Assembly: GCA_951406725.2 (NCBI GenBank)
Contig: OX597814.1
Location: forward strand, 8,680,001-8,744,000
Direction of reading: 5' to 3'
DNA: 64,000 nt
DNA from: Octopus vulgaris
Lineage: Eukaryota
Shown: piece after piece, positions 46,881-64,000 of the stretch
How positions within the stretch are numbered: the first letter of the stretch is position 1
Layout of the letters: every line of letters starts with the position of its first letter
The notes under the pieces: generated by a model
Told to the model about the DNA's origin: nothing
The model's database searches: none
What the model saw: the letters and a program-made list of their open reading frames with translations, nothing else
Program-made: the position numbers and the translations under genes

Positions 46881-47321
46881 TTATTTGGCAAAAAATAAAT
46901 TTAAAAATGGTTACTGTATTTTTAAAAGAAAACGACTGACAATGAAAGCCAAACAACATATATGTGAAATTAACAGTCAAAAACTGCAAACAAATACTGT
47001 TCAAAATTTGTATATATATATATAAATATAATACATATATAATACTGTGGTGTGATGGTGAAGGAGTGTGACGGAATGGGGGGGAGCGGAAGTGGGGCTT
47101 GCAGGTCTTGCAGGGCGCATGCGCCGGCGGAAGCGGAAGTGACAGACAGAACGCACGTGCGGCATTGACCAGTTGCGCCAGACACGACGAAGACACTGAG
47201 AAGACACGACGCTAGCGAGTTGGCTAAAGGCGATCCGAGTTCATCCCCGGCCAGGTAAGACCCAATTACATTTCCATTCCTTTCCTTGTTCTGCTGTACT
47301 CTTTTCACCATCCATACTACA

Positions 47322-47333
47322 AGCTATTTCGGC
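47322..47333 (+). promoter_or_regulatory. Atypical primer-binding site AGCTATTTCGGC, complementary to tRNA-Phe nt 1-12
   Basis: Abuts the 5' LTR end; no TGG; reverse complement GCCGAAATAGCT equals the 5' end of metazoan tRNA-Phe(GAA) as recalled. Confidence 0.7.
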
Positions 47334-47373
47334 AAATAATCACTCGGTTTCGTAAAAATAAAAATAGAAAATT

Positions 47374-50300
47374 ATGCAGAGTACTATGATTTCACGCGAG
47401 CCTATAACACCGTTTTGCAGCGACACCGATGTGGTCGCTTGGTTGAAGAGGGTAAAATTGGTGGCGAAGCTACACGGTATAGCTGACCTGGCTAGTTTTA
47501 TGCCGTTGTATTTGGATGGCCCGGCGTTGGCGTTATATCTAGAGATGGAGGAGACGGACCAACTCAGTGCAGATAAAGTGGAGATCCGACTTATGGAGGC
47601 CTTCGCGGAAGGAATGTTTGAAGCGTACGCTCGGCTGGGTAGAATGAGGTGGACCGGACAACAGGTGGACGTGTTCGCCGGTGAGCTTAGAAGGTTGGCT
47701 AAACTGGCGGGATATGAGGGAGAGTCACTAGAACGGACGGTTAGGTTAGCGTTCGTGACCGGCTTTCCCGACATTATGTCGGTCGAGCTACAGAAGCTCC
47801 CGAACGTGCGTTCGATGCCGATGGCTGATATCATATCGTGGGCACGTGTACTGGTTTCGTGCAGCAGGTTGACGTCGGTAGCAGCGACTGTAATGTTGAA
47901 AAGTGGCCCAGCTAGGAGCAACAGAGAGGGGCTGGGGAAAGAACGCGTGCGATCGTTCAAAGGACAGTGTTTCCGGTGCCAAGGCCCACACATGGTCCAT
48001 GACTGCGCGTCGCCCAAGCCTGAGGTGATTTGCTACCGGTGTCGAGAGCCGGGGCATGTAGCCAGCAAGTGTCTGTGGGGAAACGGACCGCGGGAGACTA
48101 CTGCGCGTTTATCATCGTTACCTGTGGTCAACATTCTGGTGAAGGGGAAGATGTCGTGAGCCCTGGTGGACACGGGCTGTACGACGACCCTGATGACCAC
48201 AGAAGTGGCAGAGATGTGGAGTGGAGGAAGCAGTGTTAGGGCAGTTGACGGAAGAGAAGTTCACTGTGAAGGGGTTACGGATGCGCAGATTGTGGTGCAG
48301 GGACTGCAGCTGACGTTGCGAGCGATTGTGGTCGGTCACTTGGTGGACGAGATCGACGTGGGGATGGGGATGGATGCAATCACCCGTTTGGGAGGTGTCA
48401 CCGTCAACAAGGCTGGCGTAACGTTTGGGTTAGCGGGGAAGCCGTGTAGGGCGAGACCACGCACCGACGACAACCGTGAGGAAAAGGATGCGGTGCACAC
48501 CATTGAAGACCAGGATTTTCGGGCTGTCTTTGATGGCAAGAGGTGGACAGTGGAGTGGCACTGGAAGGGAGAGCCCCCAATGTTAAAGAACAAAGTGGGC
48601 TGCTATCAGCATACTCTAAAAGGAGATGCCAGAAGTGAGTTCGAGGGGGAGGTGGAGCGGTGGATTAAGGAGGGCATACTGATCCCCTGGGAAAAAGAAG
48701 AGAGCGGAGTCCTGCCACTGATGGCGGTGATACAGCCCACAAAGCGTAAGGTCAGGCTAGTGCTCGACTTCCGAGAGCTGAATGACCACGTGTCGTGTCA
48801 TACAGGCGGTGAGGCCACGGATGTCTGTGGAGACACCTTGCGAGAGTGGAGGCAGACGGCGGGGGCCTCCACGATTGTCGATTTAAAGTCAGCATACCTT
48901 CAGGTGCATGTGGCTGAGAAACTATGGAAGTACCAGCTCGTCAGGTATAGGGGCCGGACGTCCTGTCTGACCAGGTTGGGATTCGGGCTGAATTCAGCGC
49001 CGAAGATTATGGCAACAATTCTCAAGGCCATCCTGGGGAAGGTGGACAGAGTAAAAAGGGCCACCAATTCATACATCGACGACATTCTGGTGGATGAAAC
49101 CGTGATTCCAGCAACGGAGGTCATAGGCCACCTGAAGAGTTTTGGACTGATCGCCAAGCCGCCAGAGGCTATGGAGGGAGGTGCTGCACTGGGCCTCAAG
49201 CTATGGAGAGACAAGACCGGCGCCTTGGTGTTCCGGCGAGGGAATGAGGTCCCTGAACTGGGCGCCAGCATGAGTAGACGGGAACTGTTCTCTGTGTGTG
49301 GGAAGCTGGTGGGACACTACCTGATTGCAGGCTGGCTCCGGACAGCATGTAGCTTCATCAAGAGATGAGCCGAAGGAGTGAAGTGGAATGATAAAGTGGG
49401 GGAGAGGACAATCGACATGATGCAGGAAGTCCTGGTCAGAGTAGGAGCAGAGGACCCGGTGAGGGGCAGCTGGTATGTTCCCAAATCAAAGAGCGGGATC
49501 GTATGGTGTGACGCCAGTAGCATCGCAATAGGGGTCGTCTTGGAAGTGGGAGGTGTCACGGTGGAAGATGCAGCCTGGCTCAGGAAGATGGATGACTGCA
49601 ATCACATCAACGTGGCGGAGTTGGAAGCCGTGCTGAAGGGGGTGAACCTAGCCTTGAAGTGGGGGTTGCACACCATAGAAATCAGGACTGATTCAGCCAC
49701 TGTACTTGGTTGGGCGACAGCAGTCATCACCGATGAGCGGAGGGTGCGGACCAAAGGGGTTGCAGAGATGCTGGTAAAGCGTCGATTAGGAATACTGCGT
49801 GAACTAACCACTGAGTTCAATCTGAAGCTGAGCGTGATCTTTGTGCCTTCCGAGAAGAACAGGGCAGACGTCCTGACCAGGGTAAAGCGAGCCTGGTTGC
49901 AGGTGCCAGAGGATGCGAAGCAGGATGTAGCTGCAGTATGCCATCTGAGCGACTCGGAGTTACGGAGACTGCACACCATGCATCACATGGGTGTGGACAG
50001 GACATTGTTCCTAGCCAGAAAAGTCGACTCCGATGTAACAAGACAGAGCGTGCGGAGAGTGGTTAGCAGTTGTGACAGGTGCCAGTCCAACGACCCTGCT
50101 CCGGTCGTGCATGAAGCGGGAAGTATTCCAGTGGACCAGGACTAGAGACGACTGGCGGTGGACATAACACACTACCGGTAGGGGACATACCTCTCAATGG
50201 TTGACTGCGGACCGGGGCGGTTCGCCATATGGAGGGAGATGAAGTCGGGAACCGCAGAAGAAATTGTGAAAGTGTTGAATGAGATATTCCTGGAACGAGG

Positions 50301-50958
50301 CCCCGTGGATGAACTGCTTCTGGACAACGGCACTGCATTTCGCTCGGATGTGCTGAGAGAAATGCTTGATGAGTGGAAGGTCAACCGCTTCTTCAGGGCG
50401 ACATACCGGCCAAGTGGAAACAGGGTGGTGGAAAGGCATCATCGTACCATCAAGGCCATGGCAGAGAGGGGTCACATTTCACCAGTCGAGGCCGTGTTTT
50501 GGTACAATATGTCGCCCAGATCAGGACAGGCTGAGGAGTCGGTACCACACAGGGCAATATTCAGGTACGAGTGGAGGCATCCGTGTACTACATCAATGCG
50601 ACCCGAGGCAGAGGAAGAGCACGCCTTCGTGCAGGTCGGGGAGGAAGTCTGGGTAAAACCCCCAAACGCACGGTGTACATCGCAATGGGGAAAGGGGACA
50701 ATAACCTCCGTAAATTCAAAGAATAACATCTCGGTCGATGGTATGCCACGCCACGTTTTGGACATACGGAGGATTGTCCATGCCCCAGAGGATGGGACAA
50801 GCAACAGTGGGCAAGACGAAAACAACAGACAGGATGACGAGGTCGGCAGCAACACACCAGAAACAAGTCCTAGGGTCACTCTGCGACCACAGAGGGAGCG
50901 GCACCCTCCTCCCTGGTTGGCTGATTATGAAACCAGTTTCAGGTGCGGGAGCGAGTGA
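47374..50958 (+). pseudogene. Single-frame gag-pol with three in-frame stops
   Basis: Two CCHC knuckles, LVDTG protease, DLKSAY and YIDD RT, CDAS..ELEA..TDS..NRAD RNase H, HHCC and D,D,E integrase; stops at 48157, 49366 and 50143 all in one frame. Confidence 0.92.
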
Positions 50959-51291
50959 GGAAGCCGGTTCAGTGATCTATAGATCAGGGGGGCGTATGGT
51001 GTGATGGTGAAGGAGTGTGACGGAATGGGGGGAGCGGAAGTGGGGCTTGCAGGTCTTGCAGGGCGCATGTGCCGGCGGAAGCGGAAGTGACAGACAGAAC
51101 GCACGTGCGGCATTGACCAGTTGCGCCAGACACGACGAAGACACAGAGAAGACACGACGCTAGCGAGTTGGCTAAAGGCGATCCGAGTTCATCCCCGGCC
51201 AGGTAAGACCCAATTACATTTCCATTCCTTTCCTTGTTCTGCTGTACTCTTTTCACCATCCATACTACAAATACAAATACAAATATATATA

Positions 51292-53781: not shown

Positions 53782-54388
53782 CATCAAAAGCATACAAAAA
53801 TATTATATAAATCAATAGATAAGATAGTAATACAAATACAGATTTTAAAAGTCATATTATAAATTATTGAAATCCATAAACTACTTTTTACAGCTGTTTC
53901 AGCCTATGGTCAAAAGTGAATCTAATTTTCATTGCCTATAGATGTCAACATATTAGGGTTGTAGGCATTAAAAAAAAATTAATACTTATATGTCAAAAGA
54001 ACCATAGGCCTCGTCAGAGGTTATAATTAACTTTAAAAATATAATAATAATATTAAAATACTTGTTTTGTTTATTTGTATATATTAAGTAATACGTGCAG
54101 CATGTTTAGTATATGAAATATTATTATTATATTTTTAAAGTTAATTATAACCTCTGACGAGGCCTATGGTTCTTTTGACATATAAGTATTAATTTTTTTT
54201 TAATGCCTACAACCCTAATATGTTGACATCTATAGGCAATGAAAATTAGATTCACTTTTGACCATAGGCTGAAACAGCTGTAAGAAGTAGTTTATGGATT
54301 TCAATAATTTATAATATGACTTTTAAAATCTGTATTTGTATTACTATCTTATCTATTGATTTATATAATATTTTGTATACTTTTGATG
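53782..54388. repeat. Near-perfect palindrome (~270-bp arms, ~60-bp spacer) carrying hammerhead-like motifs; Penelope pLTR-derived
   Basis: 53782-54054 is the reverse complement of 54117-54388 with very few differences; CTGACGA-GGCCTATGGT...ACCATAGGCT-GAAA-CAGCTG-TA at 54154-54282. Confidence 0.9.
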
Positions 54389-61882: not shown

Positions 61883-64000
61883 TGGATAATCACATGACGG
61901 ACACAGCACGAGAGCATTGGTGTAGAAGGGAAGAATGATTGCATGAGGGGCAGCAGGAGGAAATAAGGAATAAAATGACATGATGATGAGACAGAACAGA
62001 AACACAATAATTCAAGAGGAGAGGGAGTGTGTCCTACAGAATAGAAGGAAAGATATCAGCAAAGAAGAGAATAAATGAGCCAGGACCGAAGAGAAGTATA
62101 TTTTGAAAAAACGAGAGATAGAGATCAAAGGAATCGAGGACACGTGAGTGAAGAGCAAAGGCAGCTGTACTTAGAAAATATGAGAAAGAGAGTTCACGAC
62201 GGATGGGAAAAGATGAACGAAGATGAAAGGCAGAATTACATTCCACATATGAGAAACAGAGTTCAAGAAAGAAGGGAAAATATGGACGAAGTTGAAAGAC
62301 AGAATTACCTTCCAAATATGAGAAACAGAGTTCAAGAAAGAAGGGAAAATATGGACGGAGATTAAAGGCAGAATTACCTTCCAGATATGAAAAACAGAGT
62401 TCAAGAAAGAAGGGAAAATATGGACGAAGATGAAAGGCAGAATTACCTTCCACATATGAGAAACAGAGATCAAGAAAAAAGGGAAAATATGGACGAAGAT
62501 GAAAGGCAGAATTACATTCCACATATGAGAAACAGAGATCAAGAAAGAAGGGAAAATATGGACGGAGATTAAAGGCAGAATTACCTTCCAAATATGAAAA
62601 ACAGATCTCAAGAAAAAAGGGAAAATATGGACAAAGAGGAAACGCAGAATTACATTCCACATATGAGAAACAGAGATCAAGAAAAAAGGGAAAACATGGA
62701 CGGAGATTAAAGGCAGAATTACCTTCCACATATGAAAAACAGAGTTTAAGAAAAAAGGGAAAATATGGACAAAGAGGAAACGCAGAATTACCTTCCACAT
62801 ATGAGAAACAGAGCTCAAGAAAGAAGGGAAAATATGGACGGAGATTAAAGGCAGAATTACCTTCCAAATATAAAAAACAGAGTTCAAGAAAAAAGGGAAA
62901 ATATGGACGAAGATGAAAGGCAGAATTACATTCCACATATGAGAAACAGAGATCAAGAAAAAAGGGAAAATATGGACGAAGATGAAAGGCAGAATTCCCT
63001 TCCATATATGAAAAACAGAGTTCAAGATAAAAGGGAAAATATGGACGAAGATGAAAGGCAGAATTACATTCCACATATGAGAAACAGAGATCAAGAAAAA
63101 AGGGAAAATATGGACGAAGATGAAAGGCAGAATTACCTTCCAGATAGGAGAGTTTAAGACAGAAGGGAAGATATGGACGGAGATCAAAGGCAGAATTACC
63201 TTCCAGATATGAGAAACAGAATTTAAGACAGAAGGGAAAATATGGACGAAGATGAAAGGCAGATTTATCTTCCAGATAGGAGAGTTTAAGACAGAAGGGA
63301 AGATATGGACGGAGATCAAAGGCAGAATTACCTTCCAGATATGAGAAACAGAGTTTAAGACAGAAGGGAAAATATGGACGAAGATGAAAGGCAGATTTAT
63401 CTTCCAGATAGGAGAGTTTAAGACAGAAGGGAAGATATGGACGGAGATCAAAGGCAGAATTACCTTCCAGATATGAGAAACAGAGTTTAAGACAGAAGGG
63501 AAAATATGGACGAAGATGAAAGGCAGATTTATCTTCCAGATATGAGAAACAGAGTTCAAGAAAGAAGAGAAAACATGGACGGAGATTAAAGGCAGAATTA
63601 CCTTCCAAATATGAAAAATAGAGTTCAAGAAAAAAGGGAAAATATGGACAAACATGAAAGGCAGAATTACCTTCCAGATTTGAAAAACAGAGTTTAAGAA
63701 AGAAGGCAAAATATTGACGAAGATGTAAAGCGGATATATTTTATGACAGACAAAGCTGAAATAAGAAGATAGACTATATAGTAAAAGAACAACAAAATTC
63801 TCAATTATGATTGATGAGATGAATGTAGCATGCCCCATGTAGTATGCACATATATTTCCGCGCAAAGCATTCAACTGCTGCCATAAAGGCAAGGTTTCCT
63901 TGCCGAATCTACAAGAATACCCTGACGAGTTAAAACAAATTTTGAAGGAATGAACTTCAGACAGAAAATCAGAACCTATAACTCAATGTATTCAAGTGTC
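61883..64000 (+). mobile_element. 5' coding part of a decayed Helitron Rep/helicase gene; possible TC terminus at ~60698
   Basis: After the repeat array: CPM..NCCHKGKVSLP..FRQKIRTYNS, the usual Helitron N-terminal motif; contains stops. Confidence 0.7.
62143..63730 (+). repeat. 69-bp (23-codon) minisatellite, about 22 units, with 63+69 bp higher-order blocks
   Basis: Unit ATGGACGAAGATGAAAGGCAGAATTACCTTCCACATATGAGAAACAGAGTTCAAGAAAGAAGGGAAAAT = MDEDERQNYLPHMRNRVQERREN. Confidence 0.95.

Follow-up and report, generated by a model that had tools for sequence, protein, structure and literature searches.

A retrotransposon primer-binding position complementary to the first twelve nucleotides of a host tRNA

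The 5' long terminal repeat (LTR) of a retrotransposon from Octopus vulgaris was found to be followed by a site that exactly complements the 5' end, and not the 3' end, of the host tRNA-Phe(GAA). The element lies in a 64,000-nucleotide stretch of contig OX597814.1 (assembly GCA_951406725.2, positions 8,680,001 to 8,744,000 of the forward strand), which was analysed as a whole and is referred to here as the window. The feature is real and is conserved across a broad lineage of elements. Taken together, the sequence comparisons described below are best read as fragment priming of a new variety, in which a 5' tRNA fragment of 10–12 nt probably serves as the primer.

The features of the element are given in Table 1. 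Direct LTRs, a target-site duplication (TSD), a polypurine tract (PPT) and gag-pol with a DDE integrase identify it as an LTR retrotransposon. Alignment of the two LTRs revealed three substitutions and one indel. The original prediction had taken the near-identical LTRs and clean TSD as signs of recent transposition, and the recency was upheld, but pol is interrupted by stops at 49366, 50143 and 50179 and the 3' LTR begins with TA rather than TG. The window copy is thus a recent insertion, but a broken one. A splice-donor-like motif was located 39–74 nt upstream of the primer site in 26 of the 34 copies examined. Elsewhere, the window contains a tandem repeat with a 69-bp unit and long open frames on both strands (61975–63774), and a perfect inverted repeat with arms of 258 nt separated by 62 nt (53797–54374).

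Table 1. Features of the retrotransposon in the window (position 1 is the first nucleotide of the window).
Feature	Position	Strand	Basis
Left target-site duplication (5 bp, AATAC)	47041–47045	+	Identical 5-mer at 51270–51274
5' LTR, 276 nt, TG...CA	47046–47321	+	Aligned to 3' LTR; sister copies share boundaries
Splice-donor-like AGGTAAG, 3' part of LTR (putative)	47253–47259	+	Similar motif in other copies
Primer-binding position, exact complement of host tRNA-Phe(GAA) nt 1–12	47322–47333	+	tRNA genes, sister copies
Leader, short, A-rich, without TGG, unconserved	47334–47373	+	Comparison of copies
gag, two CCHC-like knuckles; stop in frame with pol at its end	47374–48159	+	zf-CCHC
pol: protease, RT, DUF7047, RNase H, HHCC/DDE integrase; broken by stops	48160–50958	+	Domain matches; intact homologues
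Polypurine tract, then 2-nt CG spacer	50986–50994	+	3' LTRs of other copies preceded likewise
3' LTR, 275 nt	50995–51269	+	Aligned to 5' LTR
Right target-site duplication (AATAC)	51270–51274	+	Matches left 5-mer

The sequence at 47322–47333 reads AGCTATTTCGGC and directly follows the LTR end ...CTACA at 47321, with no spacer, as had been described from the window alone. A 15-nt pattern representing the tRNA start gave 94 matches in the same genome compared to 0 for a control pattern. All 15 of the pattern loci that were fetched were tRNA-Phe(GAA) genes in which nt 1–12 exactly complement the site, confirming both the tRNA start, which had originally been given for metazoan tRNA-Phe(GAA), and its complementarity to the primer position. 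The following tRNA nucleotides, nt 13–15, mismatch the LTR end. When the site was compared with 20 distinct tRNA 5' ends recovered from the genome, an incomplete set, only tRNA-Phe gave 0 mismatches and the next best gave three. The duplex between the site and tRNA-Phe nt 1–12 had a calculated energy of -18.7 kcal/mol, compared to -10.7 kcal/mol for the best 14-mer of the LTR. About 45 of the tRNA-Phe start matches fell within one region (G000:C18:30147732-30157146) with a spacing of mostly 200 bp, which is probably a tandem tRNA-Phe array.

Other sources of a primer were sought in the LTR and leader. There is no TGG between the window LTR and the gag ATG, in agreement with the original prediction, and a hidden TGG site was rejected on account of this leader. 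A TGG within 20 nt of the LTR was found in only one of 34 copies, where it is created by a single mismatch inside the site itself. Self-priming was also rejected. Within the window 5' LTR no stretch of 5 nt or longer is an exact complement to the site, and all 14 elements compared had longest LTR runs, G-U pairs included, at the level of shuffled sequences, giving no self-primer above chance. The earlier statement that no LTR segment could self-prime was therefore correct, and no LTR segment that pairs better than chance emerged. Pairing of the template to the leader of a pre-tRNA was rejected because the base after the site varies. Primer-binding sites in two parts are known from Ty3, and an intact tRNA-Phe might in principle be merely anchored by nt 1–12 and start synthesis from its CCA end elsewhere, at a second site. 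Many LTRs of the family begin with TGTGGTG, in which TGGTG could pair with the last five bases of the tRNA. However, the TGGTG motif forms one arm of the inverted repeat at the LTR termini and is missing from L259, L260 and L262, and pairing between the leader and the 3' 18 nt of tRNA-Phe reaches only -8.5 kcal/mol. Nor would priming at the U3 edge be expected to copy the LTR by the standard scheme, and such a bipartite CCA site was rejected as extremely unlikely.

The conservation of the site was examined in other copies from the O. vulgaris genome. At 30 LTR loci, window included, the exact site followed the LTR in 25, and the other five were 3' LTRs followed by host DNA. Further copies were obtained from gag matches, of which 40 of 150 were fetched, picked for divergence. 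The 100 loci used for the site count represented 77 distinct copies, spanning families down to approximately 54% Gag identity. Conservation in sister copies had been put forward as a check on the original prediction, and the site was exact in 55 of the 77, with one mismatch in 16, two mismatches in 2 and three or more in 4. Among the copies with one mismatch, many differ by a transition at the CpG, which is what decay following insertion would produce. Conservation was calculated, with weighting by five identity bins, for the 73 copies that carry no more than two mismatches. It was 0.93–1.0 for the ACA that ends the LTR and for each of the 12 positions of the site, and 0.45 for the next base, the selection of copies inflating these values somewhat. 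The step in conservation falls exactly at the base facing G1 of the tRNA. The LTR end joined to the site occurred 279 times in the genome compared to 3 times for a control, and the distance from the site to the gag Met varied from about 19 to 65 nt. Contigs from four sequencing runs (organisms A–D), a type of data that carries no information on RNA starts, RNA ends or short RNAs, had no substitution within the site among the 40 rows listed. A variant tRNA-Phe start gave four matches in the O. vulgaris genome; these are mostly degenerate and so do not demonstrate that variants of the site derive from variants of the tRNA. Copies of the element were also seen as clusters or tandem arrangements at C18 ~83.97–84.00 Mb, C27 ~25.57–25.59 Mb and C28 8.66–10.58 Mb. 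The left flank is identical in several of the clustered copies, and the clusters include at least one internal LTR that is preceded by the PPT and followed by the site.

The DNA of relatives from other samples is scarce, and the primer position was therefore read from predicted genes whose called start lies ahead of the genuine gag Met, so that the position is included in their translation. From 317 gag-bearing proteins, 292 with an N-terminal profile match were retained, which gave 26 distinct read-through extensions. A strict site motif was present in five of the 26, compared to a mean of 0.003 in shuffled sequences. A wider Phe-like motif, defined after inspection of the data, was present in 18 of the 26 and in all three frames, compared to a shuffle mean of 0.05 and maximum of 2. 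When the extensions were assessed by hand, 14 of 21 protein clusters were compatible with the site, with a median Gag identity of 50% among the 14, which indicates that the motif is kept in relatives as well as in sister copies. The other seven clusters do not fit, several of them resembling true Gag N-termini; one of these, P0295 (QAIAA), fits a generic motif only.

Depending on frame, the read-through peptides were KLFR or KLSRP, QAISA or QAILA, and SYLG, each of which is compatible with 12–48 different 12-mers and thus fixes the DNA only in part. In frame 0 the residue before K was Y, H or N in eight of eight cases (background 0.17 each), as is required by an LTR ending in ACA, and in all eight the next Met lay 8 residues on (P0085, P0091, P0098, P0412, P0417, P0430, P0455 and P0497). 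The three SYLG clusters have I or R, and not T, before the site, which suggests that their LTR ends otherwise or is separated from the site by a short spacer. The planarian tRNA-Phe start in the accessible part of PMC7962491 is compatible with KLSRP and QAIAA, as are other variants, and the agreement is suggestive only.

Several sequence collections were also scanned for relatives. Three protein scans of viral contigs gave no relative, and the stretches of viral contigs (at least 120) returned by a scan with a 14-nt pattern were taken as chance. Two loci from a metagenome scan both proved to be an ordinary Gypsy element. A scan of genome contigs gave three loci, with the primer position present in L269 only and absent from L268 and L303 of the same bin; no further elements were found in 85 related bacterial genomes. 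The bacterial metagenome-assembled genome (MAG) in question holds at least three contigs of the lineage together with several ordinary Gypsy contigs (L268, L269, L303, L305-L312; G001), indicating that it is contaminated by eukaryotic repeats. A contig from an archaeal MAG, L270, encodes an RT, an RNase H and a Dam-like methylase in a DIRS-like arrangement. In the readable supplements of a mollusc LTR survey (PMC6238403) the motifs were absent, and the accessible text of that survey does not mention PBS or tRNA.

L269 is a collapsed element with an RT that is 46% identical, and phylogenetic analysis placed it on a long branch outside a core group of 31 rows (support 100/99). It carries AGCTATCCGGGC, starting 17 nt upstream of the gag ATG, which differs from the window site at three positions and is the exact complement of nt 1–12 of tRNA-Lys(UUU). 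The start of human tRNA-Lys3 as printed in the available text of PMC8715211 complements the L269 site exactly, and the supplement of PMC7962491, itself available in part, gives an identical start for planarian Lys-TTT. The site has one mismatch to the Lys tRNAs of the O. vulgaris genome, in which the Lys-type site gave 0 matches, and none of 30 tRNA matches from the bin that contains L269 fits it. Changing three of the seven acceptor positions gives 945 variants, of which few are tRNA starts, and it is therefore unlikely that the Lys match of L269 arose by chance. A switch of tRNA in so distant a relative adds support for 5'-end priming beyond the evidence considered originally, although it is represented by a single collapsed contig with an LTR end that is not fixed by a second LTR.

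The tRNA-Lys switch also bears on the possibility that the match to tRNA is incidental, and that the actual primer is a degenerate LTR self-primer or the 3' end of some other RNA that resembles tRNA-Phe nt 1–12. The 3' ends of other RNAs are candidates for such a primer, and a 9-nt G-U-rich stretch like the tRNA start was present in four of the 14 LTRs tested. However, 9-nt runs are at the level of chance, being reached by 28–30% of shuffles, and are absent from the window copy. One RNA cannot account for both a Phe-type and a Lys-type site, and the scarcity of tRNA starts among the acceptor variants likewise argues against coincidence, making this explanation very unlikely.

A similarly low probability was assigned to the site binding tRNA or its fragments for another purpose, such as packaging, translation control or silencing by 5' tRNA fragments, with priming by a route that is invisible in the sequence. 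Fragments from the 5' end of tRNAs are known regulators and the primer RNA itself is unobserved, both of which would be consistent with such a role. Against it, the site abuts the LTR end, where the primer must bind, and the element has no other primer site or self-primer. A target of silencing would also tend to be lost, and not retained across families at approximately 50% Gag identity.

Priming by a short 5' tRNA fragment depends on the creation of a 3'-OH where the duplex ends, since the 3' end of the tRNA itself is 60 nt away and unusable, and for this reason a cut like that of Tf1, made in trans, is favoured. The element RNA would invade both the acceptor stem and the D-stem, either in the whole tRNA or in its 5' half, leaving the tRNA from nt 13 onward unpaired with the LTR end and hanging as a flap. 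A cut at the end of the duplex would then free the 3'-OH, with the geometry of Tf1 but acting on a separate RNA. Plus-strand synthesis would subsequently run off at G1 of the tRNA, regenerating a site of exactly 12 nt, and such a run-off may explain the sharp edge of the site. Both tRNA-Phe and tRNA-Lys have A at position 9; in tRNAs G9 is usually methylated and could not pair. Because two nucleotides separate the PPT from the 3' LTR, a primer of 10 or 11 nt followed by a short spacer would also be possible. At the three positions that were counted, the acidic residues of RNase H are retained in 110–111 of 111 pol proteins; such conservation is expected in any LTR element and does not identify the enzyme that cuts. 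In Tf1, according to the available text of PMC7175516, the RNA duplex formed at the PBS is cut by RNase H between bases 11 and 12. About an even chance of being correct was given to the full mechanism, in which the RNase H of the element cuts in trans in the manner of Tf1.

The same 5' piece of tRNA might instead be made by a host nuclease, either as a ready fragment of 10–12 nt or as a longer tRF-5 or 5' half that is annealed and then trimmed. The whole of the sequence evidence fits this origin equally well. A longer fragment used as it stands would need a site that extends up to its 3' end, and nt 13–15 mismatch the LTR end. In addition, the ends left by stress nucleases often carry a cyclic phosphate and are unable to prime directly. 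Planarian tRF-5 of 18, 21 and 24 nt and halves of 25–35 nt are abundant according to the accessible part of PMC7962491, and Copia lineages are known to use half-tRNA priming (PMC6317226, available sections), but pairing at the site ends in the D-stem at nt 12, below the fragment sizes in the former, where reads of at least 18 nt were binned. On balance a host-made piece, although the strongest of the competing explanations, appears somewhat unlikely. Of the original proposal of priming by a 5' tRNA fragment of ~12 nt, the complementarity and conservation of the site are supported directly; from these we infer the priming itself and the choice between host cleavage and the RNase H of the element.

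The element had originally been called Gypsy. The order of the pol domains (PR-RT-RH-IN) is that of Ty3/Gypsy, an order shared with BEL/Pao, and although there was no direct match of a Pfam capsid in the window Gag, ESM Atlas look-alikes of the Gag homologue P0409 were Retrotrans_gag/Ty3_capsid at 0.92–0.94 with a TM of ~0.55. Domain order therefore fits the label, and the Gag look-alikes may also point to it. The label is nevertheless doubtful, because the lineage lacks the Gypsy RNase H signature and its RT-RNase H best matches a DIRS-like element. Gypsy RNase H (PF17917/PF17919) was not detected in the window, in any of three homologues or in any of 30 members of the RT region, many of which are too short, whereas ordinary Gypsy controls matched it in five of five cases with E-values of 1e-18 or better. 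The RNase H of the lineage matches PF00075/PF13456 instead. A lineage profile over RT-RNase H scored 86 bits against a DIRS-like protein compared to 24 bits against a Gypsy RT, a comparison that covered one DIRS-like and one Gypsy control, both found by similarity. The BEL/Pao markers Peptidase_A17, DUF1758/1759 and DUF5641 were absent from the window and homologues, and PF05380 appeared in one of the 30 RT-region members at E 0.06; by eye, the RNase H motifs resemble those of BEL. The best PDB matches of the lineage were retroviral integrases. A DIRS element, which would carry a tyrosine recombinase and neither a DDE integrase nor a TSD, was rejected on the basis of the HHCC/DDE integrase and the 5-bp TSD. 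The element is consequently filed as an LTR retrotransposon of unsettled superfamily, and the combination of DUF7047 between RT and RNase H, a DIRS-like RT-RNase H and a DDE integrase may represent a separate LTR lineage.

Among clusters at 50% identity the lineage has 254 representatives at E 1e-30 or better. Named relatives, identified from pol or gag proteins, come from Argonauta, Octopus, Petrolisthes, Oratosquilla, Amphibalanus, Trichuris and Trichinella, the closest named Gag being that of Octopus sinensis at 79%. The lineage is thus present in cephalopods, crustaceans and trichinellid nematodes, where it is known from proteins. That it is a separate, widespread animal LTR lineage with these domain characters and also primes from a 12-nt front piece of tRNA cut by its own RNase H has a little less than an even chance of being true.

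Priming by half-tRNAs is familiar from Drosophila copia and Ty5. In Ty1/Copia elements of this type (Osser, Bryco, Gymco-II and Bianca) a 5' tRNA fragment primes and not the CCA end, with the cut in the anticodon stem, and the available sections of PMC6317226 report this type only from Copia lineages. The site described here differs in that it matches nt 1–12, of Phe or Lys and not of Met or Ile, in elements with a non-Copia domain order. Tf1/Tf2, Tj1 and the Tf1/sushi group use an 11-nt primer from the 5' end of an RNA, released by RNase H at the end of the duplex (accessible parts of PMC7175516, PMC4600332 and PMC5341516). The likeness to this group is that a short 5' RNA end pairs with the PBS, the cut in the present case being a proposed one; the difference is that the 5' end is supplied in trans by a host tRNA, and that self-complementarity to the LTR is not above chance. 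Canonical 3'-CCA priming, for which the available text of PMC7773854 gives a PBS of 8–18 nt in retrotransposons, likewise relies on a host tRNA matched beside the 5' LTR, but the present site lacks TGG and matches the other end of the tRNA. No report of a PBS complementary to the first nucleotides of a tRNA was found by full-text search, with Repbase, GyDB and most subscription papers lying outside its scope; it is unlikely that the feature had already been noted in subscription papers, Repbase or GyDB.

A survey of plant elements distinguished three types of primer, whole tRNA, half tRNA and self-primer (PMC6317226, available sections). If the reading given here is correct, a site for tRNA nt 1–12 would be a fourth type, forming a bridge between Tf1 self-priming and tRNA priming. 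Self-priming and tRNA priming could then interconvert, as each would rely on the 5' end of an RNA and on cleavage where the duplex ends, and RNase H activity on a duplex of tRNA and element RNA would be predicted. Elements of this type would be recorded as having no PBS by annotation pipelines that seek only TGG or the 3' end of a tRNA. With relatives in three animal groups the lineage is widespread and not a local oddity, and fragment priming of this kind would provide a definite function for very short pieces from the 5' end of tRNAs.
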